Part shown: positions 2,437 through 54,086 of the stretch, piece after piece
Numbering within the stretch: the stretch's first letter is position 1
How the letters are laid out: every line of letters begins with the position of its first letter
Assembly: GCA_031425495.1 (NCBI GenBank)
Contig: JANPJL010000128.1
Span: 4,184-68,183 of the forward strand
Reading direction: 5' to 3'
Length of the DNA: 64,000 bases
Source: Acidobacteriota bacterium
Lineage (GTDB): Bacteria; Acidobacteriota; Blastocatellia; Pyrinomonadales; Pyrinomonadaceae
Position numbers and translations under genes: made by a program
Notes under the pieces: generated by a model
Told to the model about the DNA's origin: nothing
Databases searched by the model: none
The model's input: only the letters and a program-made list of their open reading frames with translations

Positions 2437-3108
2437 GTGAAGACAACCGCGATAATCGTCGCTGCCGGCTCCGGCTCACGTCTCGACCCGGAAACCCCCA
2501 AACAATTTCTCATATTGGACGGCAAGCCTGTTCTAGCCCGTACGCTCGAACGGTTTCAATCTGCGCCGTCGATTGATGCGATCGTACTCGTCCTTGCCGC
2601 GAACCGCGTCGCGGATTTCGAACAGAAATTCGATAAGGTGATAAAGATCGTGGCCGGCGGACCCACACGAGCCGCCTCGGTCCTGAATGGTCTGAATGCC
2701 GTCGACAGCGAATCAGTTATCGTCGCCGTGCACGACGGAGCACGGCCATTCGTCTCGGTCGACGAGATAGAACGGACGGTTGCGAGTGCCAAGGTGACGG
2801 GGGCCGCGTGCCTCGTGGGATCGGTGACAGACACGATCAAAACAATTCGGGGCGATGAGGTATCCGGCACGCTCGATCGCGACAAGCTCCGCCGGGCTTT
2901 GACACCTCAGGCTTTTAGGCTCGAGCTCCTTCGCCGTGCATTCGAGCTCGGTGGGACCGGCGAAGCGGTGACCGACGAATGTTATCTCGTCGAAAAACTC
3001 GGCCACCCAATTGCATTTGTGGAGGGCAGTTCGCGGAACGTCAAGATCACGAATCCCGAGGACTTGGCGTTCGCACGGGCGATCGCGCGCGGAGAGGGGG
3101 AGAGATAG
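2437..3108 (+). CDS. ispD: 2-C-methyl-D-erythritol 4-phosphate cytidylyltransferase
   Basis: AIIVAAGSGSRL...PKQFL...VAVHDGARPFV motifs. The last codons (GEGER-stop) are already part of the downstream tandem array. Confidence 0.92.
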   Translation: MKTTAIIVAAGSGSRLDPETPKQFLILDGKPVLARTLERFQSAPSIDAIVLVLAANRVADFEQKFDKVIKIVAGGPTRAASVLNGLNAVDSESVIVAVHDGARPFVSVDEIERTVASAKVTGAACLVGSVTDTIKTIRGDEVSGTLDRDKLRRALTPQAFRLELLRRAFELGGTGEAVTDECYLVEKLGHPIAFVEGSSRNVKITNPEDLAFARAIARGEGER

Positions 3109-3232
3109 GGAGACGGGGAGACTAGGAGACTAGGAGACGGGGAGACGGGGAGACTAGGAGACGGGGAGACTAGGAGACGGGGAGACGGGGAGACTAGGAG
3201 ACGGGGAGATAAGAAGACGAGAGACGGAGATG
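3090..3232. repeat. 8-nt tandem array GGAGACGG / GGAGACTA (~17 units)
   Basis: Read directly. Units alternate between the GG and TA spacer. The array starts inside the ispD 3' end and degenerates at 3215-3232. Confidence 0.95.
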
Positions 3233-3253
3233 TGAAGTAAACATACTATTCAC

Positions 3254-3299
3254 TCACTTTTAACTTTTAGTTTTTAACTTTTAGTTTTTTAGTTTTTCA
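3254..3299. repeat. 7-nt tandem array CTTTTAA / CTTTTAG (~6 units)
   Basis: Read directly. It ends 2 nt before the ispF ATG. Confidence 0.9.
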
Positions 3300-3301
3300 C
3301 T

Positions 3302-3784
3302 ATGCAAAGAATTGGTTTCGGCACAGATATCCACAGACTAGTCAAAGGCCGACCGTTGATCCTCGGCGGCGTGGCAATCGAATCGGACCTCGGTGCCGAA
3401 GGGCATTCCGACGCCGATGCGTTGACTCATGCGATCACCGACGCGATCCTCGGTGCTTTGGCACTCGGCGATATCGGCTCGCATTTCCCAAACACGGACG
3501 AACGTTGGGCCAGCGCCGAGAGCTTTGTTTTTTTACGATTCGCTGTCGGGTTGATGAAACAGCACGGGTACCAGCTCGCCAACCTCGACTCGACCATCGA
3601 GCTCGAAAAACCTAAACTCCGTCCGTACATCGAGAAGATGGCCGAAGAATTATCCATCGTCCTGGAGATCGAACCGTCGCTTATCAGCATCAAAGCAAAA
3701 ACAGGCGAAGGAGTCGACGCCGTTGGAGAGAGCCGAGCAGTGCGTGCGAATGCTGTTGTCCTCTTGCATAAAGCGCAGAGATAA
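3302..3784 (+). CDS. ispF: 2-C-methyl-D-erythritol 2,4-cyclodiphosphate synthase
   Basis: RIGFGTDIHRL...GHSDADALTHAITDAILGA...GDIGSHFP motifs. Confidence 0.93.
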   Translation: MQRIGFGTDIHRLVKGRPLILGGVAIESDLGAEGHSDADALTHAITDAILGALALGDIGSHFPNTDERWASAESFVFLRFAVGLMKQHGYQLANLDSTIELEKPKLRPYIEKMAEELSIVLEIEPSLISIKAKTGEGVDAVGESRAVRANAVVLLHKAQR

Positions 3785-3788
3785 GATG

Positions 3789-4143
3789 CTAAACCGCTGA
3801 TCCTACGAAGATCAAAAGAACACCGCACGGATCCCATATGTGCATTATTGGAGTATCTCCGACCATCTCAGGTGCAGCGATCTTGGCATGGTCGAAGTTG
3901 CCATTTTCAACAATCGGCTTGGCGAAGTCATACCATTCCTTAACACTCGAAACGTCAAACTTCATCATGAAATTTTCAGCCCAGTCTTTGTTGTAGTAGT
4001 TCTGAAGCCGGAACTTAGCGCTTCCTAAAGAACAATCCGTAGAATCGCCCCATCCTTCGACCTGATCAAATCCTAAGGCCGCATAGAACCTTTTACAGTT
4101 TCATAGTTTTGAGAGGGAACGTAAGTTACCAGTTCATTGATGG
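3789..4143 (-). pseudogene. possible decayed small gene (glyoxalase/VOC-like C-terminus?) broken by stop and frameshift
   Basis: The minus strand reads ...INELVTYVPSQNYETVKGSMRP-stop. After a frame change it reads FDQVEGWGDSTDCSLGSAKFRLQNYYNKDWAENFMMKFDVSSVKEWYDFAKPIVENGNFDHAKIAAPEMVGDTPIMHIWDPCGVLLIF. The family assignment is weak. Confidence 0.25.
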
Positions 4144-4186
4144 TCAGCATGGAAGTATTATCGAGTAACTTCTGAATTTAAGATAA

Positions 4187-4295
4187 TTCTTGTTCGTGTT
4201 CTTTTTCGCGTGTTTCGTGCATTTCGTGGTTGGGTTTGAGAAAAGATAACCGCGAAATACACGAAAAAGACACGAAACAACAAACCTACCGCCAT
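4187..4295 (+). repeat. CACGAAA-type hairpin element (copy 1 of a dispersed family)
   Basis: The left arm has TTCGTG-type units, the loop is GGTTGGGTTTGAGAAAAGATAACC, and the right arm is CGCGAAATACACGAAAAAGACACGAAACAACAA. Confidence 0.8.
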
Positions 4296-4305
4296 TCAGT
4301 AGTGC

Positions 4306-4421
4306 TTCACTTTGAAAAACGGCTGATTCTTGTTCCGTCCTTTCCGTGCAATCGGTGGTTTCCGCCTGCAAGATGACCACAGAATACACGGAGCAACACG
4401 GAGAAAACACGGAATAAGAAA
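4306..4421 (-). repeat. CACGGAA-type hairpin element (copy 2, inverted relative to the copy at 51075)
   Basis: The reverse complement of the loop, GGTCATCTTGCAGGCGGAAACC, matches the loop at 51117-51138. The tail CACTTTGAAAAACGGCTGAT is the reverse complement of the ATCAGC..TTT..AAAG.TG tail of other copies. Confidence 0.8.
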
Positions 4422-4510
4422 GGTATTGCACTGCGTAGCCTATGCACTCCACGCGCGTGCATGGACTTTGAGTTTCGCCATGTGCGAAACTTTGGCCAGT
4501 CAGACACGAG

Positions 4511-5830
4511 ATGCGGCCACAAGAGATAATCGAAAAAAAACGAGACGGATCAGAGCTCTCCTCGGAGGAGATTGCGCTGTTTATTAACGGTGTATGCGAC
4601 GGCACATGGGCGGATTACCAGACATCGGCGCTGCTAATGGCGATGTTCATTCGCGGCCTGAGTGAAGCCGAGGGCGAGACGTTGACTCGCGAGATGCTTT
4701 ATTCGGGTGACGTCCTCGACTTCTCCGACATCGATATGCCAAAGGCCGACAAACATTCGACCGGAGGGGTAGGTGATAAGACGTCGCTGCTGATCGCTCC
4801 GATCGTAGCTGCATGCGGCGTCGCCGTTCCGATGGTCTCGGGGCGCGGCCTGGGTCATACGGGCGGGACCCTCGATAAACTCGAATCTATTCCGGGCTAC
4901 AATGTGAATCTTTCGACGGGCGAGTTTCGAAAGATCGTGAAGAGCTGCGGGTTCGCGATGTCAGGCCAGACCGATCAGATCGCACCCGCCGACCGGAAAC
5001 TCTACGCGCTACGAGACGCAACCGCGACCGTTCCATACATACCGTTGATCGTCGCTTCGATCATGTCGAAGAAGCTCGCCGAAGGTTTGGATGCACTGGT
5101 GCTTGACGTAAAGACTGGCTCGGGAGCATTCATGCAAAGTCTCGATGATTCGCGAACGCTGTCGAATGCTCTTGTTCGGACCGGTGATGGGTTCGGTCTA
5201 AAAGCGCAGGCGATCGTTTCGGACATGAACCAGCCACTTGGACAGTTTGTCGGTAACGCGCACGAAATCTACGAGTGCATCCAGATCTTGCGCGGCGAAG
5301 CCGGTGAAAATGCGAGAGGAACTTCCGAGTTATCTGTAGATCTGTCGGCACGAATGCTTTTGCTTTCGGGCATTGCCGATTCGATCGAATCCGCGCGGTC
5401 GCTGGTTGAATCTAAGATCTCGAGCGGCGAGGCGTTGGAAAGGCTGCGGGAAAATATCGAACGCCAAGGCGGTGACCCCGCCGTTTGTGACAGTCCCGCG
5501 ATGCTGATTGCCCCGGGCATTCACAAGGTTGAGCTGAAAGCCCCGCGGCCCGGTTATGTGTCTGCGATCGACACACTCTCGATCGGCAACACCCTGTCTG
5601 AGATCGGGGGCGGACGCGTTAAAGCCAGCGACGATATTGACCACGCGATCGGCTATGAGTGCGTCGCGCTGCTAGGCCACAAGGTCGCAGAAGGAGATAC
5701 GCTCGGTGTTTTGTTTACGCGTGACGGCCTCCGGTCCGGACTCGCAGTCTCTAAGATTACAGGTGCCTATCGGATCGACGACAATGCCGTGACCCCCCCG
5801 CCGCTTATTCATGATGTGATTTCTATTTGA
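4511..5830 (+). CDS. deoA: thymidine / pyrimidine-nucleoside phosphorylase
   Basis: KRDG..LS.EEI..FI; DKHSTGGVGDKTSL; SGRGLGHTGGTLDKLESIPG motifs. Confidence 0.9.
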   Translation: MRPQEIIEKKRDGSELSSEEIALFINGVCDGTWADYQTSALLMAMFIRGLSEAEGETLTREMLYSGDVLDFSDIDMPKADKHSTGGVGDKTSLLIAPIVAACGVAVPMVSGRGLGHTGGTLDKLESIPGYNVNLSTGEFRKIVKSCGFAMSGQTDQIAPADRKLYALRDATATVPYIPLIVASIMSKKLAEGLDALVLDVKTGSGAFMQSLDDSRTLSNALVRTGDGFGLKAQAIVSDMNQPLGQFVGNAHEIYECIQILRGEAGENARGTSELSVDLSARMLLLSGIADSIESARSLVESKISSGEALERLRENIERQGGDPAVCDSPAMLIAPGIHKVELKAPRPGYVSAIDTLSIGNTLSEIGGGRVKASDDIDHAIGYECVALLGHKVAEGDTLGVLFTRDGLRSGLAVSKITGAYRIDDNAVTPPPLIHDVISI

Positions 5831-5910
5831 ACTTTTTCTGCAAGAACAATTTCCTAGATGCGTTCGGTAGATACTAGCCAATCGGCAATCTACCAGTCAG
5901 GAGTTGTTGT

Positions 5911-7071: not shown

Positions 7072-7092
7072 CGCGCAGCGCTACTTCCGTTA

Positions 7093-7337: not shown

Positions 7338-8387
7338 ATGAGAATCAAATACCTTCTGTTGTTTTGCTTGGTTTCTTCGCTACTTGCCGGCTGCGGAAAT
7401 CGCACGGAAGCTCGTCGGGAAGGTTGCCAGATCCGAGTCGGTATTGTTTTTGATATCGGTGGCAAGAACGATCGTTCGTTCAACGCCGCCGCCTGGGAAG
7501 GTGTGAAACGAGCCGAACAGGAGTTGCCGATCTGCCTCTACGATGTGGAGCCCGGCAATCCGACCTCGATCGAGCCTGCGATGCGTGCATACGCGGAGAA
7601 AGGTTTTGATCTGATCGTAGGCGTCGGCTTCGCACAGGGTCCGATCCTCAAACGCGTGGCGACTGACTACCCGAATATTAAGTTTGCGATCGTCGACGGC
7701 GTCATCTTCGAGGACGACGGTAAAACACCAAAACAGAACGTCGCGTCGCTTGTCTTTCGCGAGCATGAGGGGTCGTATCTCGTTGGAATGATAGCGGCAG
7801 AGAAATCGAAGACGGGTGTGATCGGATTCCTCGGCGGTATGGATATTCCGCTGATCCACAGATTTCAGAAAGGGTACGAAGAGGGTGCAAAGTCGGTGAA
7901 CCCGAACGTCGTACTTGTCTCCAACTACGTGGGCGTAACCGACCACGCGTGGAACAATCCAGGTAAAGGAAAGGAACTTGCACTTGCGCAGATCGAGCGG
8001 AAGGCGGACGTGATCTTCACCGCCGCAGGAAATTCCGGTCTCGGCGCTTTTGATGCGGTCGAGCAGTATGGCAAGAACGATCAAGGCGAAGCGAATAAAT
8101 TCGTGATCGGAGTCGACTCAAATCAGAATGGCGTGAAGCCAGGCTATGTCTTAACGTCTATGGTGAAGCGAGTAGACGTCGCGGTGTATGACGCCGTCAA
8201 AGAAGTTCTCGGCGGCAATTTCAAAGGCGGCTTCCATGTCTTCGGTCTCGACAAGGACGGCGTCGCATACTCCCTCGACGATAACAACAAACCGCTCATT
8301 TCAGCCGAAACTCTCCAACGCGTGGAAGCGGCGAAGGGGAAGATCGTCGGGGGAGAGATTAAAGTGACAGACGCGATGGCAAACTAG
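7338..8387 (+). CDS. BMP-family (PnrA/Med-like) ABC transporter substrate-binding lipoprotein
   Basis: Lipobox LLAGC. GIVFDIGGKNDRSFNAAAWEGVKRA is typical of basic membrane protein / nucleoside-binding lipoproteins. Confidence 0.85.
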   Translation: MRIKYLLLFCLVSSLLAGCGNRTEARREGCQIRVGIVFDIGGKNDRSFNAAAWEGVKRAEQELPICLYDVEPGNPTSIEPAMRAYAEKGFDLIVGVGFAQGPILKRVATDYPNIKFAIVDGVIFEDDGKTPKQNVASLVFREHEGSYLVGMIAAEKSKTGVIGFLGGMDIPLIHRFQKGYEEGAKSVNPNVVLVSNYVGVTDHAWNNPGKGKELALAQIERKADVIFTAAGNSGLGAFDAVEQYGKNDQGEANKFVIGVDSNQNGVKPGYVLTSMVKRVDVAVYDAVKEVLGGNFKGGFHVFGLDKDGVAYSLDDNNKPLISAETLQRVEAAKGKIVGGEIKVTDAMAN

Positions 8388-8390
8388 GTA

Positions 8391-8477
8391 AAAGTTGATA
8401 GTTGATGGTTGATAGTTGATAGTGAAAGAAGAAGCCCACTCAGACTATCAATTTTCAACTATCAATTATCAACTTTC
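8391..8477. repeat. hairpin made of 7-nt GTTGATA units
   Basis: The left arm (8391-8424, AAAGTTGATAGTTGATGGTTGATAGTTGATAGTG) is near-complementary to the right arm (8441-8477). The loop is AAAGAAGAAGCCCACT. The element starts 4 nt after the TAG of the BMP gene. Confidence 0.9.
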
Positions 8478-8484
8478 TTGTCTC

Positions 8485-20128: not shown

Positions 20129-21265
20129 ATGAGTACAGCAACAGAAAGTACGGCGGCAGCGGGACTTCGCGGGGTCGTTGCGGCACAGAGCGCGATCGGC
20201 GACGTTAACGGCGAAGAAGGGAAGTTAATTTACCAGGGTTACGATATTCACGATCTGGCGGAAAACTCGACCTTTGAAGAGGTCGTTTTTTTGCTTTGGA
20301 ACGGCCGTCTGCCTAATAAGGAGGAGCTCGATGAGCTGACCTCGCAGATTCGTGCGAACTACAAAGTGCCGGCCGAGATCATCGCCGGAATGAAGTATAT
20401 GCCGAAGGACGCCGATCCCATGGATGTCCTCCGCACTTGTGTTTCCGCTCTGGATTTCTACGACAAGGACGGGCACGGCACCGATCCCGAGAATGCGAAG
20501 AACTCGGCGATCAAGATCACCGGTCAGATCGGCACTATCGCGGCTGCGTGGGACAGAATTCGTAATGGCAAGGACCCGGTCACACCCGATGCTAACCTGT
20601 GCATCGCAGAAAATTTCCTCTACATGCTTCGCGGCGAGAAAGCGGATTCAGACGAGGCCCGGATGTTCGATATCGCGCTTATCCTTCACGCCGATCACGA
20701 ACTAAATGCATCGACGTTCACCACGCGTGTTGTCGCCGGAACGCTAGCTGACATGTATGGCGCGGTCACCGCCGGGATTGCCGCACTGGCAGGTCCGCTT
20801 CACGGCGGAGCAAACACCGCGGTGATGAAGATGTTGATCGAGATCGACGATCCGGCGAAGATCGACGCGTGGGTAGACGATGCACTCGCGAGCAAGAAAA
20901 AGATCATGGGTATCGGGCACGCGGTCTACAAGACGGAAGACCCACGGGCGACCTGGCTCAGGAAATTCTCGAAGCAGATGGCCGACAAGAAGGGCGAGGC
21001 GAAATGGTTCGACATGTCGCAGCGTATCGAGAAACTTATGCTCGAGAAGAAGGGAATGTTTCCGAACGTCGACTTCTATTCCGCGTCGACGTATTACCTG
21101 ATGGGAATCCCGCTGGACCTATACACCCCGATTTTCGCCGTGAGCCGCATTTCAGGCTGGACGGGTCACATTCTCGAACAGTACGCGAACAACAAGCTGA
21201 TTCGGCCGCGAGCCGAATACATCGGCGAGCGCGATCAGAAGTATGTCGCGATAGGCGAACGGTAA
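20129..21265 (+). CDS. gltA: citrate synthase (short, ~378 aa type)
   Basis: GLRGVVAAQSAIG...GKLIYQGYDIHDL; LILHADHELNASTF; GPLHGGAN; GIGHAVYKTEDPR. Confidence 0.9.
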   Translation: MSTATESTAAAGLRGVVAAQSAIGDVNGEEGKLIYQGYDIHDLAENSTFEEVVFLLWNGRLPNKEELDELTSQIRANYKVPAEIIAGMKYMPKDADPMDVLRTCVSALDFYDKDGHGTDPENAKNSAIKITGQIGTIAAAWDRIRNGKDPVTPDANLCIAENFLYMLRGEKADSDEARMFDIALILHADHELNASTFTTRVVAGTLADMYGAVTAGIAALAGPLHGGANTAVMKMLIEIDDPAKIDAWVDDALASKKKIMGIGHAVYKTEDPRATWLRKFSKQMADKKGEAKWFDMSQRIEKLMLEKKGMFPNVDFYSASTYYLMGIPLDLYTPIFAVSRISGWTGHILEQYANNKLIRPRAEYIGERDQKYVAIGER

Positions 21266-21313
21266 GTGGTAAGTGGTAAGCGGTAAGTGGTAAGTGGTGA
21301 GTGGTAAGTGTAA
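21261..21313. repeat. 7-nt tandem array GGTAAGT (~7 units)
   Basis: Read directly. The gltA TAA stop (21263-21265) is inside the first unit. Confidence 0.9.
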
Positions 21314-21314
21314 G

Positions 21315-21343
21315 AAGGCTTCGGGTGACCGAGGCCTTTTTCC
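21315..21343 (+). terminator. intrinsic terminator of gltA
   Basis: AAGGCTTCGG-GTGA-CCGAGGCCTT followed by TTTTT. Confidence 0.75.
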
Positions 21344-21480: not shown

Positions 21481-22614
21481 ATGAGAATTTTCAAATTATC
21501 GACGGCGATCTTTTTAATCAGCCTATTTTTAATGGCATGTAATTCGGATGAGCAGCGTGGTGAGATTACGACGGCCGACCCTTACCCGAGAGAACCGGCG
21601 TTAGTCGAGCAGCAGCCGATAGATGACTATTGGGCGAAAGACAATCTTGATCTTGAGCGCGTAGGCAACTTACTTGAACGATCCGAGGATCCTGAAGAAT
21701 TCGAGAGATATCTAAACGACGACGACGGCATCAACAACCTCGACCTTAACGGCGACGGTTATGGCGACTATATCAGCGTGGAGGAATTTGGGGACAACGA
21801 TTCCAACTCGCGCGGGCTTTCGCTATTCTCGCGTTTTGGTCCGAATCTTATTCAGCAGATCGCGACTATTCTTTTACATCGGGATAGTCCGAATTATCCG
21901 GGTGCGCGTTTTCTGATCAACGGAAACGAGCAGCTTTACGGCGATAACAATTACTACGAGACGAACTGGCTAGACCGCAGCATTCCCCTCGTTTCAACGT
22001 TGTTCGGTAATCACACCCGATACAGCTCGCCCTACTACTACGACAATTATCCGAACGGCTACAATTCCTATCAGGTGGTTGATACGCCGGTCTATCGCAC
22101 GCGAATTGAGCAGCTCTATCCGCAGCCAGTATTCGTCTACACGACGAACCCGACATTTATCGACAAGGTAAAGATCAAGTCGCCGCACGAGGGCAAATGG
22201 ATAAATAACGTTTACGCTAAGCTCGCGAAACCGACGAAAGAGCAAGCTGAATTCCTGAAGAGCAATCCAGGACGCAAAAATCTTGCTATCGGCGACAAAC
22301 CGGGCCGCGTCGATCCGCCGCGGAGTGATCGAGGCGACGAGCGCGGTAATCCTGCGAGAGATGAACGTGGAGCGCAGCGCGGCAATCCGGATAAGCCTGT
22401 CGGCAATCCAAAAGACAATGGTCCCGGCGGAAAGCCGGAGAAGTTCGACAACCCGAACAAAGGCGGTGGCAATCCGAACAAAGGCGGTGATAAGCCGAAG
22501 ATGAGTGGCGGTAACCCTAACAAGGGCGGTGGCAATCCGAACTCGATGGGTGGTGGGAATCCGAACAAGGGCGGTGGTAACCCGAACAAGGGCGGTGGTA
22601 AAGGCAAACCCTAA
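21481..22614 (+). CDS. lipoprotein with acidic Ca-binding-like loop and basic GGNPNKGG-repeat tail
   Basis: Lipobox FLMAC. DDDDGINNLDLNGDGYGDYISVEEF is EF-hand/dockerin-like. The C-terminal ~100 aa are repeats of GGNPNKGG / GNP.K. Confidence 0.65.
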   Translation: MRIFKLSTAIFLISLFLMACNSDEQRGEITTADPYPREPALVEQQPIDDYWAKDNLDLERVGNLLERSEDPEEFERYLNDDDGINNLDLNGDGYGDYISVEEFGDNDSNSRGLSLFSRFGPNLIQQIATILLHRDSPNYPGARFLINGNEQLYGDNNYYETNWLDRSIPLVSTLFGNHTRYSSPYYYDNYPNGYNSYQVVDTPVYRTRIEQLYPQPVFVYTTNPTFIDKVKIKSPHEGKWINNVYAKLAKPTKEQAEFLKSNPGRKNLAIGDKPGRVDPPRSDRGDERGNPARDERGAQRGNPDKPVGNPKDNGPGGKPEKFDNPNKGGGNPNKGGDKPKMSGGNPNKGGGNPNSMGGGNPNKGGGNPNKGGGKGKP

Positions 22615-23859: not shown

Positions 23860-24050
23860 CAGTTGTCAGTGGTCGGTTGTCAGTTGTCAGTAAAGCGGAA
23901 TCGGGAAGCAGAAGGCGGAGGCGGAAGGCAGAAGGCAGAAGGCGGAAGGCGGAAGGCGGAAGGCGGAAGGCGGAAGGCAGAAGGCGGAAGGCGGAAGGCG
24001 GAAGGATGAAAGCCGACAACTGACAACTGACGACTGACAACCGACAACTA
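23860..24050. repeat. composite repeat: inverted GTTGTCA-unit arms enclosing a GGCGGAA 7-nt array (~15 units)
   Basis: The left arm at 23860-23890 (CAGTTGTCAGTGGTCGGTTGTCAGTTGTCAG) is near-complementary to 24012-24050. Between them lies GGCGGAA/GGCAGAA x ~15. Confidence 0.9.
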
Positions 24051-24055
24051 ACATT

Positions 24056-24583
24056 ATGTTTTGTCCTCATTGCGGTCAGGAACGAATTTCCGAGGCGACG
24101 AGCTTTTGCTCGCGGTGCGGTTACTTATTGACGGGAACTGCGGCATTGCTTCGGACCGGCGGGGTGCCTCCGCAAACGCCGACCGGCGGACCGCGTTCGC
24201 CACGTTCGCGGGGAGTGCGGATGGGAACATTCATGTTCCTACTGATGTTTGTCCTCGCGCCCATCGTGGGTTTGATCTCCGTATTTGGATTGCGTATCGA
24301 ACCGTGGCCGGTCGGTCTGGTTATAGCACTTTGCGGGTTTGGCGGATTGCTCCGAATAATCTACGCCCTGATGTTCGAATCGAAAATTTCGATAGCCGGG
24401 CCAAGCTCTGCTCGCGAAATCGATCCGGCGCTGGCCGGTTTTACTACTTCGGCGCTACCTCCGCAGCGAGAGATCCCTGCCCCCGAATACGTCTCCCCTC
24501 GTCCCGGCACATGGCGCGAGCCCGAAGTCCGCACACCCGCCACCGTTACCGACCACACAACGAAACTTCTCGATAAAGAATAA
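24056..24583 (+). CDS. zinc-ribbon membrane protein (paralog B)
   Basis: MFCPHCGQERISEATSFCSRCGYLL, two TM helices, and the C-terminal motif TVTDHTTKLLDKE. Confidence 0.7.
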   Translation: MFCPHCGQERISEATSFCSRCGYLLTGTAALLRTGGVPPQTPTGGPRSPRSRGVRMGTFMFLLMFVLAPIVGLISVFGLRIEPWPVGLVIALCGFGGLLRIIYALMFESKISIAGPSSAREIDPALAGFTTSALPPQREIPAPEYVSPRPGTWREPEVRTPATVTDHTTKLLDKE

Positions 24584-26261: not shown

Positions 26262-26320
26262 GGATTATCCTCAATGTCGGAACGGGTCCACTATACACCA
26301 TTGGGGAAGGCTGGATGCGG

Positions 26321-26436
26321 ATGGCGGGAGGCGGAAGGCGGAAGGTGGAAGGCGGAAGGCGGAAGGCGGAAGGCGGAAGGCGGAAGGCGGAAGGTGGAAG
26401 GCGGAAGGCGGAAGGGGAAGTTGGGAGGCGGAAGGC
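26321..26436. repeat. 7-nt tandem array GGCGGAA (~16 units)
   Basis: Read directly. It uses the same unit and strand as the array at 23896-24006. It lies between the sulfatase start and the upstream gene's terminator. Confidence 0.95.
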
Positions 26437-29633: not shown

Positions 29634-29762
29634 ATTCTCCTTTCTTTACGCCGTGTCTCCTCCGCGTATTCCGTCACTATCTGAATTCAGGAAGATAACC
29701 ACGGAATACACGGAGAAGACACGGAATAAAGCGGAACAATAATCAGCCTTTGAAAGGTGACA
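29634..29762 (+). repeat. CACGGAA-type hairpin element (copy 4)
   Basis: Left arm ...CGCCGTGTCTCCTCCGCGTATTCCGTC, loop ..AGGAAGATAACC, right arm ACGGAATACACGGAGAAGACACGGAATAAA, tail AATCAGCCTTTGAAAGGTG. Confidence 0.8.
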
Positions 29763-29772
29763 ACCACCGAAT

Positions 29773-29818
29773 TCTGACCTCTGACCTCTGACTTCTGACT
29801 TCTGACTTCTGACTTCTG
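29773..29818. repeat. 7-nt tandem array CTGACCT/CTGACTT (~6.5 units)
   Basis: Read directly. Confidence 0.9.
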
Positions 29819-31002: not shown

Positions 31003-31287
31003 GAGTTCCGGCGTTGCAGAGTTTGGGGAAGTTTCCAGAGTTGCAGAGTTGCAGAGTTTCCAGGGTTTCCAGAGTTTGGAACTGGTTCCAGTGTTGAAGG
31101 TTCTCCGCAGTTAGAAAGTTCTAGGCCGGGGGAATGGTTGTGAGCTCCGACTCTGGAAACTCTGCAACTCTGGAAACTCTGCAACTCTGGAAACTCTGCA
31201 ACTCTCCAACTCTGGAAACTCTGCAACTCTGGAAACTCTGCAACTCTGGAAACTCTGGAAACTTCTCCCAACTCTGGAAACTCTGCC
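31003..31287. repeat. 285-bp inverted array of 8/9-nt units (17-nt super-unit CTCTGGAAACTCTGCAA)
   Basis: The left arm (31003-31095, TTTCCAGAGTTGCAGAG units) is the reverse complement of the longer right arm (31150-31287). A ~55-nt unique spacer separates them. Confidence 0.9.
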
Positions 31288-31414
31288 ACTGTCTTGACAC
31301 GGCGTCATGGGTTTCGTAGCATTGCAATTCGCTTCTTTTCGCCTGAGAGGCGTTGTTTTTTTGATAATTCGTGTGGGTGCGGCGTGGTGCGGCGAGGTAG
31401 GATAAAAAAGTTTA

Positions 31415-31490: not shown

Positions 31491-31496
31491 TTCCTA

Positions 31497-31583
31497 TTTT
31501 GGATTTTGGATTTTGGATTTTGGATTCAAGCTGGTTGAACGGCCTGTTTTCAATCCAAAATCCAAAATCTAAAATCCAAAATG
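31497..31583. repeat. hairpin of 7-nt TTTTGGA units between two tRNA genes
   Basis: TTTTGGA x4 (31497-31527), a unique loop, then TCCAAAA x4 (31551-31583) ending 6 nt before tRNA-Asp. Confidence 0.9.
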
Positions 31584-31719: not shown

Positions 31720-31812
<93 letters not shown>

Positions 31813-32397
31813 CTAACTCTTCCGTAACTCGGTCAATACTTGTTTCGCGACCGCCTTCAACGTGTCGAAAACGCCAGTACCATCCATCGCAACGGCTTCG
31901 AAAACTGGCTCGCCTTTTCGTTGCAGCTCACCGACAAGTTCCTCCATGGGCGTAACATTCGGAAGGTCACGTTTGTTAAGCTGGAGCACGTAAGGAAGGT
32001 CCATCAGGTTGTAACCTTGGGTCTGCAGATTTTCTTCGAGGTTGTAGAGCGATTCGATGTTCGCGTCCATACGTTCTTCCTGGCTGTCCGCAACGAAGAC
32101 CACGCCGTCGACACCCTTCAGTATCAGCTTTCGCGAGGCATCGTAATAGACCTGGCCGGGTACCGTGTATAAGTGAAAACGCGTTTTGAAACCGCGAACC
32201 GTTCCCAGTTCGAGCGGCATAAAGTCGAAGAACAAGGTACGATCGGTCTCGGTCGCCAGACTGATAAGCTTACCCTTTGCCTGCGGCGCAGTTGAATCGT
32301 AAATGTGCTGCAGGTTGGTGGTCTTACCGCACAAACCGGGACCGTAATATACGATCTTGCAATTGATCTCGCGGGAAGCGTAATTGATAAAGGTCAT
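31813..32397 (-). CDS. mglA: Ras-like GTPase MglA (polarity/gliding motility regulator)
   Basis: [30 protein letters not shown]...[10 protein letters not shown]...[30 protein letters not shown]...NKRD. By eye it is highly similar to Myxococcus MglA as I recall it. Confidence 0.92.
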
Positions 32398-32398: not shown

Positions 32399-32494
32399 TC
32401 GATTTTGGATTTCGGATCTTGGATTCTGGATTAGATCGGATCATCGCCACGTTAGGTTTCGGTCGATCAATGTCCAACATCTAAAATCTAAAAA
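32399..32494. repeat. degenerate TTTTGGA-type units in the mglB-mglA spacer
   Basis: GATTTTGGATTTCGGATCTTGGATTCTGGATTAGAT lies at 32401-32436 and ATCTAAAATCTAAAAAT at 32478-32494. They are partly complementary. Confidence 0.6.
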
Positions 32495-43609: not shown

Positions 43610-45490
43610 TTAGACCGATATCGGTAACCGACCAAACTGGTCCAACGCTTCAAAAACCTGCAACGCATATTTCACATTTCCAAACGGGGCCGATACCTGC
43701 ACACCGGCGATAATGTCGCGAACGTCGAGCAGCGATTCGCGGGCGATCGCAATACCTGCCTCCCGAGCTTCTTCCTTTCCTTTGTCCGACGCAATTCGCA
43801 TCCGATCGAGAATATCCGCCGTAACATTTACGCCGGGCACTTCGTTGTGGAGGAACTCCGCATTTCGAAAACTTACCAGCGGCCAGATACCGGCCACGAT
43901 CGGGATCTTCACATGCTCGATCTTATGGAGAAACGACCGAAGCTGCTCGGTATCGAATACCGGCTGCGTGATCGCATACTCGGCTCCGGCTTCTACCTTC
44001 CACTCAAACCGCCGGATTTCTTCTTCCAGATTTACCGCCCCGGGGTTCACTCCGACGCCGATCGAAAAAGCCGTTGGCTTGCCGATCGGATTGTTGCCGA
44101 TATCCAGCCCGTGATTGAGCTTGTTGACCATGTTGGTCAGACCGATCGCATCGATATCGAATACCGCGGTAGCATCCGGATACGGTCCCATCTTTGGCGG
44201 GTCGCCGGTAATTATCAGGAGGTTGTGCAGCCCGAGCGCCGCGGCACCGAGTAGGTCCGACATCATGCCGAGAAGATTACGATCGCGGCAGCAGTAGTGG
44301 AGTACCGCCTCGATACCGATCTCTCGTTCGACCAAAACGGCTGTCGCCTGGGCGGACATTCGGGTCTGTGCACGCGGACCGTCGGGAATATTTACACCAT
44401 CGACACCTGCGTCCTTCAGCAGGCGGATGGAATCAAGGGTCTTGTCAGCGTCACAGCCTTTCGGCGGCAATACCTCCACTGACGTCACGAATTCGCCCCT
44501 GGCAATTTTCCTTCCCCAATTTGACCTCTCCTCGGCGGGTACGACCTGGACATCGATCGGTGTCAACTCGACGACTTGGGCGCTCTGCTTTCTGGCTTCG
44601 CTGATCGCTTGCCGCGGACTAACAGATCGGATCGCCTCGGAAATGAGCTTTATGTGCGTCGGGGTCGTGCCGCAACATCCGCCCACGAACTTCGCTCCCG
44701 ATTGTACAAAGCGGCGAGAGAACTCCGCCATATATTCCGGGGAGCCCATGTAAAACTGCCGTCCCTGAACATCACGCGGAAGGCCGGCATTAGGCTGGGC
44801 CGACATCTTCTTTGCAGTCAGCGGCCGCATTTTGTCGAGAGCGGTGAGCACGTGGTTCGGTCCCATTCCGCAATTGAGACCGATGACGTCGACGTCCAAC
44901 TTGTCCAGGCTTACAGTGAATGCCTCCGGCGTCGTGCCGAACGTGGTCTTGCCGTCCATTTGGATCGCCATCTGCGCAATGATCGGTAAATCGGATAGCT
45001 CTCTGACGGCGCGGATCGCTTGCTCGATCACCGGTATTTCGGAGAAGGTTTCCAGTATAAATAGGTCGACGCCTCCTTCGAGCAATGCCTCGACCTGCTC
45101 CTTGAACAGATCTTTGGCTTCATCGAATGACGTCGGTCCGAAAGGCTCGATCCTCAATCCAAGAGGCCCGATAGCGCCGGCGACAAAAACTTTGTCGCCG
45201 GCAGCCTCGCGCGCAATGCGTGCTGCGGCAATGTTGATCTCCCGGAGTTTGTTCTCCAGACCGTACGGCTGCAGTTTGTGTCGCGTCGCACCGAACGAGT
45301 TGGTCTCGATGATGTCGGCTCCGGCCTTTATGTACTCTCCGTGGACCTCGCGTACCAGGTCCGGTGCTACGAGGTTTAGCTCGTCGTAGCTTCGGTTTAT
45401 GAATATGCCCTTATCGTAAAGCCGTGTCCCGACCGCTCCGTCGAAAACATACACACGGTCGTTGTCTATAATCTCTCGAAAGTTTTTCAT
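43610..45490 (-). CDS. bifunctional homocysteine S-methyltransferase / 5,10-methylenetetrahydrofolate reductase (YitJ-like)
   Basis: The N-terminal Hcy-binding domain has VFDGAVGT.L...ETNSFGA...GGCCGTTP. The C-terminal half is MTHFR-like (EV.PPKG......NIPDGPRA). Confidence 0.85.
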   Translation of the reverse strand: MKNFREIIDNDRVYVFDGAVGTRLYDKGIFINRSYDELNLVAPDLVREVHGEYIKAGADIIETNSFGATRHKLQPYGLENKLREINIAAARIAREAAGDKVFVAGAIGPLGLRIEPFGPTSFDEAKDLFKEQVEALLEGGVDLFILETFSEIPVIEQAIRAVRELSDLPIIAQMAIQMDGKTTFGTTPEAFTVSLDKLDVDVIGLNCGMGPNHVLTALDKMRPLTAKKMSAQPNAGLPRDVQGRQFYMGSPEYMAEFSRRFVQSGAKFVGGCCGTTPTHIKLISEAIRSVSPRQAISEARKQSAQVVELTPIDVQVVPAEERSNWGRKIARGEFVTSVEVLPPKGCDADKTLDSIRLLKDAGVDGVNIPDGPRAQTRMSAQATAVLVEREIGIEAVLHYCCRDRNLLGMMSDLLGAAALGLHNLLIITGDPPKMGPYPDATAVFDIDAIGLTNMVNKLNHGLDIGNNPIGKPTAFSIGVGVNPGAVNLEEEIRRFEWKVEAGAEYAITQPVFDTEQLRSFLHKIEHVKIPIVAGIWPLVSFRNAEFLHNEVPGVNVTADILDRMRIASDKGKEEAREAGIAIARESLLDVRDIIAGVQVSAPFGNVKYALQVFEALDQFGRLPISV

Positions 45491-45700
45491 GACATTTTCG
45501 GTCGGAGTTTCGATCGCAAACTTTGCTATGGGGCTCCGATCACAACTTGAAGGTCGCGAATCGAAATCAAAAAAGTCTCGCTAAACAGCGAGACTCCTAA
45601 AAAGACGAATTCGTTTGAGCTGTTTAGCAGATTATTTAACGTGGTCGCAAGTCGCATTAACTCACCACAAATTATTAACCGCAATCATGCGTTGTTCTCG
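45491..45700 (-). promoter_or_regulatory. structured 5' leader with terminator/antiterminator alternative (riboswitch or attenuator candidate)
   Basis: The minus-strand RNA has GUCUCGCU-GUUU-AGCGAGAC followed by U6 (45569-45594) about 78 nt before the ATG. The upstream segment GCUAAACAGC (45619-45628) is perfectly complementary to GCUGUUUAGC at the top of that hairpin. Further upstream is GUGGU...ACCAC. Confidence 0.55.
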
Positions 45701-50034: not shown

Positions 50035-50075
50035 GTTGGTTGTTTATCAAAATCGAATGACGGTATAATCGGCCT

Positions 50076-50369
50076 ATGGTCGAGAAACTGACCGTCATTT
50101 TTTTTATTATTCTCTGCGTCTTGCTTGGGTTTTATTTGATCCTTGCACCGTGGGACACACTTTTCGGAAACTGGGGCGAGAACTATTTGCTCGTGTTCGT
50201 ATCCGACCGCGCCGGGTTTCCTATTCTTCAGCGAACTGTGTCATCCAACTGGTTTCGCGGAGCAGTCACCGGACTCGGCGTTCTTAATATTATTATCGCC
50301 TTTTGGGAAGCCGCACACTTCAACCAGAGTGTCGCGATGCTCGGCGGTGACAAATCCGAGCGAAAGTGA
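50076..50369 (+). CDS. small membrane protein
   Basis: Two to three hydrophobic helices. A 4-nt overlap links it to the thiE start. Confidence 0.5.
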   Translation: MVEKLTVIFFIILCVLLGFYLILAPWDTLFGNWGENYLLVFVSDRAGFPILQRTVSSNWFRGAVTGLGVLNIIIAFWEAAHFNQSVAMLGGDKSERK

Positions 50370-51007: not shown

Positions 51008-51074
51008 AATCTGAGGAACAGTCCACTTAAAATTTAACGTGCGTGCGGCGCTTATGCTACTAAGTGCAAGATCC

Positions 51075-51200
51075 TTCTTATTCCTTATCTTCTCCGTGTT
51101 GTTCGGTGTATTCTGTGGTCATCTTACAGGGCGGGTACCACGGAATACACGGAACAACACGGAGAAGACACGGAATAAGAAATCAGCGCTTTTCCAGATG
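51075..51200 (+). repeat. CACGGAA-type hairpin element (copy 5)
   Basis: TTCTTATTCCTTATCTTCTCCGTGTTGTTCGGTGTATTCTGTGG, loop TCATCTTACAGGGCGGGTA, then CCACGGAATACACGGAACAACACGGAGAAGACACGGAATAAGAA and the tail ATCAGCGCTTTTCCAGATG. Confidence 0.85.
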
Positions 51201-51218
51201 AATCCCTAAGTCTTAACT

Positions 51219-52016
51219 ATGAGCAAACCTCCTGTTTGTTTGACGATTGCGGGCCTGGATCCGTCGGGCGGAGCCGGGATAATCGCGGATATAAAAACGT
51301 TCTCGGCATTCGGCTGCTTTGCAGCGGCGGCGGTCGCTTCGATCACTTTTCAAAACACGGTCGGGGTATTCGGTGCCGAACACCAGAGTGCCGATTCAGT
51401 GCGTCAGCAGGTTGACCCGATAATCGAAGATTACGAAATAGCCGCGCTAAAAACGGGAATGCTGCCGACTCGCGAAGTGATCGAGGAAGTCGCGCGACTT
51501 GTCCAGCGAATGAACGGATCGCGATTCGTCGTCGATCCGGTGGTGCGATCGACATCGGGTTTCGATCTTATTGACGGCGCCGCGCTCCGATCGTTGATCG
51601 ATGTGCTTTTCCCGTTATCCGATCTCGTCACGCCTAATAAACCGGAAGCAGAACGTATCAGCGGCATCGCGATCGAATCGATCGATGACGTCAAAGCCGC
51701 AGCTGCCCAAATGCAGTCGATGGGTGCTAAGAATGTTCTGATCAAGGGCGGCCACTTTGAATCCGACGCGGCTGGCGAGCGTAAGGCGAGCGACTATCTA
51801 TTTCTTGGAGATGATATGCATGTGCTTGATGCCGCGTACATCGAGACGACCGCTACGCACGGGACCGGCTGCGTGTTGGCAGCGGCCATCACTGCAAATC
51901 TCGCGTTGGGTTCCGACTTGCTTAGATCGGTGACTGCGGCAAAGGATTTCGTAACGAATGCCATCAAGACCGCACCCATGATTGGTCGCGGAAATTCACC
52001 GATCAACCTGCTTTGA
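51219..52016 (+). CDS. thiD: hydroxymethylpyrimidine / phosphomethylpyrimidine kinase
   Basis: LTIAGLDPSGGAGI.ADIKTF......VT.QN...V......K.GML......VVDPV......TPN..E......KGGH......HGTGC. Confidence 0.9.
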   Translation: MSKPPVCLTIAGLDPSGGAGIIADIKTFSAFGCFAAAAVASITFQNTVGVFGAEHQSADSVRQQVDPIIEDYEIAALKTGMLPTREVIEEVARLVQRMNGSRFVVDPVVRSTSGFDLIDGAALRSLIDVLFPLSDLVTPNKPEAERISGIAIESIDDVKAAAAQMQSMGAKNVLIKGGHFESDAAGERKASDYLFLGDDMHVLDAAYIETTATHGTGCVLAAAITANLALGSDLLRSVTAAKDFVTNAIKTAPMIGRGNSPINLL

Positions 52017-52883
52017 TTATTTTGCTATCGGGATGAAGACCGGCGAAAGATATGTGACGCCGAACGTGATGCCGCTGCGCGGACTGTACTTGGTGAGACC
52101 GAATATCGCGGCGGTGTCGAACCGGAGACCGGATGCTTTGATCTGCGTTCCGATTCGAAATTGACCGACGCTTTCGGTGCCAAGCGGAGCGGCTCCGGAT
52201 CGCGAACTGTGTCGACCATTCACTTCGCTCACAACATTGATGCGATCGTTCACGCCGAAGATCCCCGCGAGCCCGTAGAGGATCACGTCGTTCTGCGAGA
52301 AACTGGCGAGCGGGGAGTTCATGATCCCGAGTCCGATGTTGCCGTAGATATTAGCAAGTGGAGCCCGGCCGGCCCGTTTGCCGAACTTTTTCTGAACGAT
52401 CACCTTGCTAAAGACATTTATTTGATTCGTGCCGATGCCGCGAGCCTGATCGGAGTTCGGCATCTGAAACCCGAACTTGAAACCGAGAGCCGGGAGATTT
52501 GCTGTCTCCCGATGCAGCAGTACCTTTGCCGAAACCGTGATGTCGTCGAAATCGTTTGACGAATTGCCTAAGACGTTCAGCGGTATCGGACTTGGAAGAG
52601 TTTGAGAATTGATCGCGAGGTAATTTTGGACGACGCCTTCGATCTGCAGCTCGACGTTCGACGCAAAGCCATTTCGCAGCCGTATATCACCGACCCGCGT
52701 CAGATCACCCTTTAAGCCTGAAAGCGGAAACTTCGCGTTTTGCAGGAAATCGACACCCGCCGAGATCTCGATCGCACCGGCCGGCGTGATATCGATATCG
52801 TCGGTGATAAGCGGACGCTGTTGTCCCGATCCGGGAGTGGTCGCCAGACCGACGAGGAAAATAATGAAAAGTGAACGCAGCAT
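52017..52883 (-). CDS. outer-membrane beta-barrel protein (transporter-like), function unknown
   Basis: Signal peptide MLRSLFIIFLVGLATTPGSG, alternating beta-strand pattern, and a C-terminal aromatic-rich end. Confidence 0.55.
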   Translation of the reverse strand: MLRSLFIIFLVGLATTPGSGQQRPLITDDIDITPAGAIEISAGVDFLQNAKFPLSGLKGDLTRVGDIRLRNGFASNVELQIEGVVQNYLAINSQTLPSPIPLNVLGNSSNDFDDITVSAKVLLHRETANLPALGFKFGFQMPNSDQARGIGTNQINVFSKVIVQKKFGKRAGRAPLANIYGNIGLGIMNSPLASFSQNDVILYGLAGIFGVNDRINVVSEVNGRHSSRSGAAPLGTESVGQFRIGTQIKASGLRFDTAAIFGLTKYSPRSGITFGVTYLSPVFIPIAK

Positions 52884-53122
52884 TGCTTTGAAAAATTAGG
52901 CCAAGGGAATGTTAGCAGAACCGGCCGTCGATTCCGAGCATAAAAACGGACGAGCCACCGGGAGGAGCACTTGGGTCCGTACCTCGAATCTGGCAGAATA
53001 TCGCTATCGCATTTTTACTGTCAGATCTTCTTTTACGGCTTGATGGGACCGCAAGATCTTCAAAAGGGAACGTGGGGGCTTGTTGGGCTGGAACGCCTGA
53101 ACGCTCTCGGGTAGTAAAAGAA

Positions 53123-53398
53123 ATGGTTGTTGCCCGAAAGCTCCTCATACGCGGCCTTGTGCAAGGCGTCGGCTACCGTTACTTCGCTCAGCGTGCGGCT
53201 GCCCGACATCAGGTGCACGGGTACGTGAAGAATCTCGACGACGGCCGGGTCGAAGCGTTCGTACAGGGCGATGAGGGCCAGGTCGAAGCCTTCAAACACG
53301 ATTTGACGGCAGGCCCAACATATTCGAATGTAGAAGATGTGGAAGAGATCGTGCTCGACCCGAGCCGTAGGTTCTCGACGTTCCGTATTGAGCGTTGA
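53123..53398 (+). CDS. acyP: acylphosphatase
   Basis: RGLVQGVGYRYF......GYVKNL.DGRVE...QG. Confidence 0.85.
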   Translation: MVVARKLLIRGLVQGVGYRYFAQRAAARHQVHGYVKNLDDGRVEAFVQGDEGQVEAFKHDLTAGPTYSNVEDVEEIVLDPSRRFSTFRIER

Positions 53399-53427
53399 TC
53401 TCGACCGACATATCGACAAGCTAATAG

Positions 53428-53949
53428 ATGGAAAACTTAAGAAAACTTATTCGCGAAGTGCCCGATTTTCCGAAGCCGGGCATTAACTTTTACGACATAA
53501 CGACGCTCCTCAAGGACCCGACGGGTCTCGAAGAAACGGTGGATGCTTTGACTGAGCAGTGTCGAGGCATGGATATCGATACCGTAATCGGCGTCGAATC
53601 ACGCGGCTTTATTTTTGCGACGCCGCTCGCGTATCAACTGGGCGCCGGGTTTGTTCCCGTGCGTAAACCGAAAAAGCTGCCGGCAGAAAAAGTATCGGTT
53701 TCGTATGATCTCGAATACGGACAGGACACTCTCGAAATGCACAAGGACGCCATCGGCGAAGGCCAGCGCGTTCTGATCGTGGACGATCTGCTCGCAACCG
53801 GCGGCACGGCTAAAGCGGTCGTCGATCTCGTCGAAGGTCTCGGCGGAAAGGTCGAGGGTCTGCTGTTCGTCGTTGAGTTGAACTTTCTCAACGGCCGGCA
53901 GAAGTTCGACGGTTACAATCTTAAATCGTTAATGAGATACGACTCTTGA
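53428..53949 (+). CDS. apt: adenine phosphoribosyltransferase
   Basis: DFPKPGI.F.DIT.LL.....ESRGF.F......RK..KLP......[14 protein letters not shown]. Confidence 0.93.
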
Positions 53950-53951
53950 AT

Positions 53952-54050
53952 GGTTGATCGTGGATCGTTGTTCGTTGCTCGCGTGGATGAGTACGTAGAT
54001 TCGGGAAGGAACGACGACGATCAACGAACCACGATCAACGATCAACGAAT
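53952..54050. repeat. hairpin of 7-nt GTTGATC units
   Basis: The left arm GGTTGATCGTGGATCGTTGTTCGTTG starts 2 nt after the apt stop. The right arm is CGACGATCAACGAACCACGATCAACGATCAACGAA. Confidence 0.85.
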
Positions 54051-54053
54051 TGA

Positions 54054-54086
54054 CAATCCAAAATCCAAAATCCAAAATCCAAAATG
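54054..54086. repeat. 7-nt array CAAAATC x4.5 immediately upstream of tRNA-Arg
   Basis: CAATCCAAAATCCAAAATCCAAAATCCAAAATG is almost the same string as the one preceding tRNA-Asp at 31551-31583. Confidence 0.9.

Follow-up and report, generated by a model that had tools for sequence, protein, structure and literature searches.

Introduction

In Coxiella, the intervening sequence (IVS) contains an S23p open reading frame (ORF), a 28-bp terminal stem that is cut by RNase III and tandem heptamers that vary in number between strains; it is viewed as a selfish element whose removal by RNase III explains why it is tolerated (PMC4990558). Here we analyse a window of 64,000 nt (the whole stretch of DNA under study, positions 4184-68183 of contig C128) from a metagenome-assembled genome (MAG) of the family Pyrinomonadaceae (Acidobacteriota), in which tandem arrays of 7-nt units, often paired into hairpins, are scattered between the genes. 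To our knowledge, the PF05635 proteins, annotated as '23S rRNA IVS proteins', are common and of solved structure, with no known function. The elements described in this work resemble the 23S rRNA IVS of Coxiella burnetii and Leptospira, with their S23p/PF05635 ORF (PMC4990558), in the four-helix-bundle gene, the inverted repeats and the stem of ~28-31 bp, in the heptamers within the arm and their strain-variable number, and in a sporadic, horizontally patchy distribution. They differ in that none of the 16 gene-bearing cassettes of this genome is located in rRNA (their neighbours are protein-coding or tRNA genes), in that most copies (~140) carry no gene, and in that RNase III processing is proposed here by analogy.

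Heptanucleotide repeats have also been described as GGGAATC/GGGGAYT in Xanthomonas and Nostoc (PMC4692102) and as TAACTGA in Beggiatoaceae (PMC4679880), and both papers quote Mrazek et al. 2007 on long simple sequence repeats with heptamer units. These repeats share with ours the strong genome-wide excess of tandem 7-nt units, the intergenic position, some inverted pairs and variation in length and sequence between close relatives. Ours belong to another phylum and have other units, with dozens of unit families versus one to three; PMC4692102 and PMC4679880 report neither the stereotyped 31-nt arm nor the strict polarity nor a link to PF05635 cassettes, all of them features of this genome. A first-pass annotation of the window, made from the letters of the DNA, had stated that no description of this organisation was known, which was too strong given that heptamer excess, inverted pairs included, is published in these two papers. 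In the searchable literature we found no description of such arrays in Acidobacteriota, of a fixed arm of ~4.4 units or of a strict polarity, nor of heptamer-armed PF05635 cassettes outside rRNA or of their gene-less derivatives. The short tandemly repeated repetitive (STRR) sequences of cyanobacteria were reportedly described by Mazel and colleagues in 1990; in the strict sense they belong to heterocystous cyanobacteria and have the unit sequences STRR1-3. An assignment to STRR sensu stricto was rejected, the organism being a member of the Pyrinomonadaceae and its units differing from STRR1-3. The excess of intergenic heptamer repeats has been known since 1990 (STRR) and 2007 (genome surveys), and we know of no accepted origin or function for it.

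A third comparison is with the repetitive extragenic palindromic (REP) sequences of proteobacteria, their mosaic clusters (bacterial interspersed mosaic elements, BIME) and the REP doublets forming hairpins (REPIN). Like these, our elements form hairpins from inverted doublets with variable spacers, reach hundreds of copies and lie after stop codons or inside operons, rarely between divergent genes. However, their arms are not short GC-rich palindromes and are not associated with the Y1 (REP-associated tyrosine transposase, RAYT) genes of the genome. We hold, with moderate confidence, that the arrays are best explained as IVS-like heptamer foldback elements and gene-less derivatives of them, overlaid by slippage and concerted evolution.

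Heptamer arrays form families of stereotyped inverted arms

The genome (3.67 Mb in 316 contigs, 53.8% G+C) is a 94.6%-complete MAG from soil/sediment, and the relatives of its citrate synthase (gltA) are Pyrinomonadaceae (Blastocatellia, Acidobacteriota), with a best match of 89% amino-acid identity. Period-7 arrays were counted with Tandem Repeats Finder (TRF; score of at least 40), using a third-order Markov shuffle of the genome as the control, and hairpins were counted in a wider set of 761 arrays (score of at least 30). Genes (3051, 86.6% coding) were called with a rough custom codon-bias caller. Unit classes were counted over rotations and both strands, which makes 1170 classes possible.

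Genome-wide, 558 period-7 arrays were found versus none in the shuffled genome, a strong excess of tandem head-to-tail 7-nt units like that of long heptanucleotide simple sequence repeats and STRR-like repeats. Arrays of period 8 (63 vs. 0) and period 9 (166 vs. 1) were also present; the period-9 total pools coding repeats, a CACGGAATA-type element and 9-mer hairpin arms (for instance window 31030-31077 and C236:2973-3004). Depending on the array set, the genome holds ~560-760 arrays, or ~15 per 100 kb, and ~140-170 hairpins. The arrays are dispersed and predominantly intergenic: 375 of the 558 overlap called genes by less than 10%, and many of those counted as genic sit at mis-extended 5' ends of called genes.

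The typical module consists of two inverted arms of ~31 nt, each made of a 7-nt unit (in rare cases 8 or 9 nt) repeated 4.4 times, around an unrelated loop of 10-60 nt. Among adjacent arrays with the same unit in the wider set, 138 pairs were inverted (276 arrays) and 3 direct. The loops have a median of 25 nt and mutually unrelated sequences; the predicted folding energy has a median of ~-45 kcal/mol and the best ungapped stems a median of 29 bp. Array length does not decay from short to long but peaks sharply at ~31-33 nt (~4.4-4.7 units; 183 arrays). The peak is strongest in certain families, and 71% of the TTTTGGA arrays measure 30-34 nt. The first-pass annotation had seen one shared architecture in the window, an observation that the genome-wide arrays support.

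The 558 arrays use only 106 of the 1170 possible unit classes, the largest families being TTTTGGA (~63-66 arrays), GTCAGTT (~32-35), TTTGGGA (~28-30) and GGTAAGT (~23-26). The statement that the arrays mostly have different units thus holds within the window and fails genome-wide, where TTTTGGA alone recurs at ~65 loci. TTTTGGA arms all read A(TTTTGGA)4TT, and the common variant TTTTAGA is concentrated in unit 2. Phase and length are fixed within families, and so is polarity (19:0, 10:0, 7:0 and so on), which is strong across families too, with more G than C in the 5' arm of 119 hairpins vs. 15. The same length peak and the same polarity (22:7) were found in 1.56 Mb of DNA from relatives. The shared phase, ends and positional variants, together with unrelated loops, indicate the copying of a defined module of ~31 nt rather than independent slippage, and the dispersed families with stereotyped arms point to module copying and not only to local slippage.

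One rival would be slippage in place and nothing else: a replication or repair bias of the lineage that duplicates any local 7-mer, independently at each locus, with inverted pairs made by template switching and no element or protein partner. We judge it improbable. It would accommodate the ~330 arrays that are unpaired, some of which reach 39 copies, and the joining of unit families by single substitutions (468 links vs. ~300 expected for random unit sets); moreover, PMC4679880 and PMC4692102 quote Mrazek et al. 2007 as attributing heptamer excess to polymerase slippage. Against it stand the sharp arm-length peak at 31-32 nt, the restricted set of units, the strict polarity within families, and the recurrence of one unit, in the same phase, with the same ends and with position-specific variants in common, at as many as 66 loci.

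A second rival, which the first-pass annotation had also raised, is that the arrays are artefacts of short-read metagenomic assembly or binning. Many contigs of the MAG end in arrays (for example C104 and C295) and unitigs break inside arms. However, a contig of run X2 spans the hairpin at 8391-8477 and a contig of run X1 spans the gltA array, both with zero differences, and the same architecture occurs at more than 100 loci in dozens of independent MAGs, multi-megabase contigs among them, and in viral contigs. No sequence variants were seen at the arrays at contig level in the assembler contigs of the two samples. An artefact is therefore scarcely credible.

The same arms bracket PF05635 genes

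The genome has 16 PF05635 genes. In 11 of them, inverted arrays with the same unit flank the gene on both sides within 250 nt, and the rest have at least one array; among ~950 other genes of 80-220 aa, only 2 are flanked in this manner. The association extends to relatives across the class (18 of 31 PF05635 genes with such arms) and to IMG/VR viral contigs from unrelated sources (26 of 39, with ~4.3-4.9 units per arm). In this genome, the cassette arms have 4.1-9.7 units. Loop sizes are bimodal, with 128 of 172 at 10-60 nt and a second class at ~360-430 nt, and the PF05635 genes lie in the larger class. This strong, cross-phylum association with one gene family is a further point against slippage alone.

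The arrays that do not flank a PF05635 gene (n = 734) are related in sequence to those that do: 31% share the exact unit of a cassette arm (1.9% of unit classes by chance) and 73% are within one substitution of such a unit (30% by chance). As the same arms bracket PF05635 genes, the gene-less hairpins have the architecture of cassette termini. The claim of the first-pass annotation that the arrays reflect something other than the spread of one mobile element was thus too strong. The window itself holds gene-less copies: no PF05635 match was found on contig C128, and none of the window arrays encloses such a gene. In their terminal inverted repeats the elements agree with IVS cassettes, which form a stem of ~28 bp or longer: the arm length peaks at 31-32 nt. 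By contrast with the IVS, none is inserted in a 23S rRNA helix, and all 16 are flanked by protein-coding genes, including lspA-lgt, purA-glgA and der-tgt. An RNase III gene is present in the genome.

The PF05635 proteins match TIGR02436 ('four helix bundle protein') and the structures 2GSC and 2RLD of the Protein Data Bank, which are pentameric four-helix bundles. The paralogues are divergent (median identity of 32% across 30 genes, 14 from this genome and 16 from relatives), and protein divergence correlates weakly with the distance between arm units (Mantel r 0.21, p 0.0008), a relation that shared ancestry of gene and arms would yield anyway. Among candidates for dispersing the modules, only the PF05635 protein shows a consistent link.

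The proteins also gave a weak match (28 bits, below the cut-off of 80 bits) to the model of Avd, the four-helix-bundle accessory protein of diversity-generating retroelements (DGR). Apart from this match and the fold, the two systems differ: the genome has no PF00078 gene, and the cassettes have no template or variable repeat context. The PF05635 genes of this genome are not DGRs. 'Writing' of the arrays by a reverse transcriptase, with an Avd-like partner and telomerase-like reiteration, was rejected on the same lack of a PF00078 gene in the genome.

Mobilisation of REPIN-like elements by the Y1 (RAYT/IS200-like) transposases of the genome was considered too, as REPINs are inverted doublets with variable spacers and the genome has 12 PF01797 matches. 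It is very unlikely. Heptamer arrays flank none of the 12 Y1 genes, many cognate RAYTs would be needed for the more than 20 unit families, and two Y1 genes are bracketed by GC-rich palindromic REP-type arrays of their own, with periods of 49 and 25-31 nt (C132:24540-25548 and C185:7775-8647). On these two contigs, a separate REP/RAYT population thus coexists with the heptamer arrays in the same genome.

Orthologous junctions in related genomes

Orthologous junctions gain and lose elements, and in sister species one site can be occupied by different families, which speaks against slippage as the only process. In the tRNA-Val/tRNA-Asp spacer, five sister genomes have 3-8 nt, while hairpins of 75-99 nt from four unit families (TTTTGGA, AATTGAG/AATGGAC, AATTACG and AATGCAG) are found here and in five other sisters. 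Comparison of filled and empty spacers hints at a possible duplication of the ~5-7-nt spacer, in sequences too diverged for a firm call. Set against miniature inverted-repeat transposable elements, the elements have terminal inverted repeats, and their loops are unrelated. At the lspA-lgt junction, an orthologous PF05635 cassette is present in six genomes of the genus; elsewhere in the genus the junction is short and has a solo arm of another family, or nothing. Four genomes have AGAAGCC as the arm unit of this cassette and two have AGAAGTC, the opposite arm being changed to match, indicating concerted evolution of all units in both arms. The TTTTGGA hairpin family has 36 and 18 matches in two genomes from other families of the same class (G037 and G034, respectively) and is absent from several genomes of the same genus. 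As judged from these sequence matches, the patchy distribution suggests horizontal spread or repeated loss.

At the 3' end of gltA, arrays of different but related units (GGTAAGT here; GCGGTAA/GCAGTAA, GGTGAAT, AGTGACA, GGCAAAA and GTAATTA in relatives) lie between the stop and a conserved intrinsic terminator in more than 10 relatives, and in at least six of these the unit nearly repeats the last codon together with the local stop (TAA or TGA). Unit number differs between relatives, a comparison that the first-pass annotation had proposed: copy number ranges from 2 to 9, and the closest relative has ~3 degenerate copies vs. 8 here. The terminator is also present in relatives without the array. 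These sequences support seeding in situ and slippage at the 3' end of gltA. The first-pass suggestion that arrays are generated in place, by slippage seeded at 3' ends, therefore stands for the gltA site in at least six relatives; the dispersed families with their stereotyped 31-nt arms point to more than local slippage.

Position relative to genes

Arrays are most frequent in convergent gaps (1.29 per kb of intergenic DNA), intermediate in co-directional gaps (~1.0) and rarest in divergent gaps (0.37). Arrays occur in 181 co-directional gaps. In 54% of these gaps, the first array edge overlaps the upstream stop or is at most 5 nt away from it (22% under random placement within the same gap); the median distance is 4 nt to the stop and 16 nt to the next start, and the stop is the nearer of the two in 113 cases vs. 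65. The enrichment at gene 3' ends, inferred earlier from the window, is borne out by this genome-wide census. Most hairpins occupy operon-internal or 3' junctions, where they begin right behind the stop codon and end shortly ahead of the next ribosome-binding site, and when the hairpin is removed, the remaining spacer is at most 40 nt in 57 of 78 co-directional hairpin junctions. On an 18.6-kb contig (C119), the spc/alpha ribosomal-protein operon with its essential genes has ~11 hairpins between cistrons, drawn from at least six unit families, at junctions that include rpsQ-rplN, rplN-rplX, rplE-rpsN, rpsN-rpsH, rplF-rplR, secY-adk and rpsK-rpsD. The predicted N-termini of rplX, rpsC and rpsM on this contig are artificially extended through arrays.

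This placement could also be produced by selection for regulatory structures in cis which, like enterobacterial REP/BIME, terminate transcription, stabilise mRNA against 3' exonucleases or insulate neighbouring genes; functions of this type had been offered as an alternative in the first-pass annotation. Arrays are indeed over-represented after stops and in convergent gaps and scarce in divergent ones, the hairpins are predicted to be very stable, and the fixed polarity could be selected to avoid Rho loading or terminator-like U-tracts, although the last point is our own speculation. However, hairpins inside the ribosomal-protein operon cannot be efficient terminators, and the separate conserved terminator after the gltA array indicates that this array is not itself the terminator. 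No T-run or U-tract follows the hairpin arms, unlike in an intrinsic terminator, where a GC-rich stem and then a U-tract close a transcription unit. The unpaired arrays had no significant orientation bias relative to transcription (83:67), and the stem mismatches showed no significant excess of G-U over A-C on the sense strand (59:47). Orthologous junctions in sisters, moreover, are often empty or have other units. Our results argue against terminators and against selection on RNA pairing, and selection for termination, stabilisation or insulation found no support; we give this explanation a small chance of being correct. The elements look like passengers rather than gene-specific control signals.

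In one PF05635 cassette (C266:12656-12711), the GAAGTCA arm encodes the end of lspA, its last ~17 codons (…SQNSEIGSQKSEPEVTS*). Arrays can thus supply C-terminal tails and stop codons, and the end of ispD in the window (3091-3108) is similar.

A model for the origin of the elements

In the model that we favour, that of IVS-like foldback elements with gene-less derivatives, selfish or near-neutral passengers would insert, or be copied, into the least constrained DNA. This DNA would lie directly after stops, ahead of ribosome-binding sites and away from promoters, which would account for the apparent anchoring at stop codons. The hairpins would be co-transcribed with their neighbours and form near-perfect double-stranded RNA stems of ~30 bp. 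By analogy with the 28-bp stems of the IVS in 23S rRNA, RNase III probably cuts the stems of these hairpins, or else they are just tolerated, and they probably do not act as terminators. Replication slippage would expand and contract the arrays and could seed new ones from a local heptamer, as at the gltA stop, while conversion would keep the units and the arms homogeneous. The polarity, with the G/U-rich arm first and the C/A-rich arm last, might persist if the reverse order exposed a C-rich Rho-loading tract or terminator-like U-tracts, which is speculation.

Several points weigh against this model. Co-transcription of the hairpins and their cutting by RNase III are steps that we infer; mobility is read from presence or absence and from shared variants, with the events unordered by a species tree; and in the elements compared, neither a target-site duplication nor a conserved internal sequence was demonstrated. 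The ~330 unpaired arrays, some of them very long, and the local seeding at gltA make a pure element model incomplete. No cassette of this genome has exactly the arms of TTTTGGA, the family with the most arrays; the nearest one has TTTGGGA arms. Remnants of PF05635 genes were not found in loops of intermediate size, several of which hold a CACGAA-type repeat or are false pairs spanning a gene. In a set of 20 genomes, for most of which 28-60 kb was sampled (8 and 20 kb for two of them), PF05635 gene count and sampled array density show only a weak, suggestive correlation (rho 0.42, p 0.066). The 3'-end bias could also come from a weak benefit, such as protection from 3' exonucleases.

A bolder version, which we advance tentatively and consider rather doubtful, is that heptamer foldbacks and PF05635 proteins form one unrecognised element that crosses phyla. 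The pentameric ring would bind the arm with approximately one 7-nt unit per protomer, each paralogue would read its own unit, and the gene-less hairpins would be non-autonomous copies kept or propagated in trans. The arithmetic of the pentamer (5 x 7 nt = 35 nt) is close to the fixed arm of 31-33 nt and is offered in favour of this ring-binding proposal. If true, it would account for the long-known heptamer repeats of cyanobacteria and Xanthomonas as well as for how protein-coding rRNA intervening sequences arose.

Irrespective of this bolder version, the data tie heptamer repeats to PF05635 through the same arms, the 4.4-unit length and the polarity, with the link recurring in relatives and in viral contigs, and they offer PF05635 as a concrete candidate partner for these repeats. 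Viewing the elements as passengers offers a simple explanation for their accumulation at stop codons and inside operons. This genome is unusually rich in both, with 16 cassettes and ~15 arrays per 100 kb. On the practical side, the elements fragment short-read assemblies, create spurious ORFs and C-terminal tails (such as that of lspA) and can mislead terminator and operon prediction in Acidobacteriota.

Arrays of the 64-kb window and other repeats

TRF and direct reading of the sequence recovered all the arrays that the first-pass annotation had listed (Table 1). The six contacts with stop codons that it had reported (ispD, the BMP lipoprotein gene, gltA, the 59-aa ORF, mglA and apt) all hold by the ORF coordinates.

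Table 1. Heptamer and related arrays of the 64,000-nt window. Positions are those of the window; gene identities were taken from ORF coordinates and Pfam matches.
Feature	Position	Parts and copy number	Neighbouring genes	Related loci in the genome	Basis
8-nt array GGAGACGG/GGAGACTA	3091..3209	~13.5 copies; 24-nt super-unit x4.2	Overlaps last codons and stop of ispD (ORF 2437-3108; Pfam IspD)		TRF, sequence
CTTTTAA/TTTTAGT array, AAAAACT family	3256..3297	~6 copies	Ends 4 nt before ATG at 3302	~22 arrays of this family; its arms on two PF05635 cassettes	TRF
Hairpin (GTTGATA)x4.4, (TATCAAC)x4.4	8393..8474	Arms 8393-8423 / 8444-8474; 20-nt loop	Fills junction after BMP/PnrA-like lipoprotein gene (stop at 8387; gap 5 nt)	PF05635 cassette with arms of the same family on contig C12	TRF, sequence
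GGTAAGT array	21261..21314	x7.9	gltA TAA (21263-21265) within first unit; between gltA stop and conserved intrinsic terminator (~21315-21342)		TRF, sequence, Pfam
Composite element, outer arms (GTTGTCA)x4.6 and (TGACAAC)x5.6, inner (GGCGGAA)x13.7	23860..24053	23860-23891; 23911-24005 (GGCGGAA array); 24015-24053	Fills gap from 59-aa ORF stop (23857; gap 2 nt) to ATG at 24056	Arrays nested within loops also on contigs C65 and C233	TRF
GGAAGGC array, long, unpaired	26305..26436	x19	Between two minus-strand genes; 172 nt after upstream stop (26608), 44 nt before sulfatase start (26261)		TRF
TTCTGAC array, CTGACTT/GAAGTCA family	29772..29818	x6.7	24 nt downstream of minus-strand ARPP-1 gene stop (29842)	Unit is the arm unit of the PF05635 cassette at lspA-lgt (C266)	TRF
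Hairpin, arms of alternating 9-/8-nt units; left CAGAGTTTC/CAGAGTTG, right CTCTGGAAA/CTCTGCAA	31030..31290	Arms 31030-31077 / 31145-31290; loop ~67 nt		9-mer array AGAGTTTCC flanks PF05635 gene on contig C236	TRF, sequence
Hairpin A(TTTTGGA)x4 TT and inverse arm	31496..31582	Arms 31496-31526 / 31552-31582; 25-nt loop	Fills tRNA-Val / tRNA-Asp spacer		TRF, sequence
Hairpin (GAGACAG)x4.7 / (TCTTGTC)x8.1	31720..31814	Arms 31720-31752 / 31758-31814; very short loop	Between tRNA-Asp and mglA stop (31813), abutting the stop		
Degenerate TTTTGGA-family hairpin	32401..32493	TRF array 32401-32432	mglB-mglA junction; bounded by mglA start 32397 and mglB stop 32495		TRF
Hairpin (GTTGATC)x4.1 / (GATCAAC)x4.7 and solo (AATCCAA)x4.4 arm	53953..54085	Arms 53953-53981 / 54017-54049; solo arm 54055-54085	Together fill gap from apt stop (53949; gap 3 nt) to tRNA-Arg (54094)		

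A second dispersed repeat was observed genome-wide, with degenerate CACGGAA/CACGAAA units at a spacing of 9-11 nt (window 4255-4413, 29700-29728 and 51139-51177). It is nested in the loops of several heptamer hairpins (C94:10727-11141, C170:8832-9187, C274:21922-22185 and C211:10669-10905), and a similar sequence follows gltA in two relatives (L045 and L047). Within ORF 21481-22614, a 21-nt in-frame tandem repeat AACCCGAACAAGGGCGGTGGT of ~7 copies (window 22450-22601) encodes a stretch with many Asn, Pro, Lys and Gly residues; it has no relation to the heptamer arrays. Finally, positions 45603-45678 of the minus strand match the Rfam SAM_alpha riboswitch model (SAM-II-type, 'alpha-proteobacterial') with 40.1 bits vs. 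a gathering score of 36 bits; in this acidobacterium, the match lies upstream of a minus-strand ORF of 626 aa (43610-45490).

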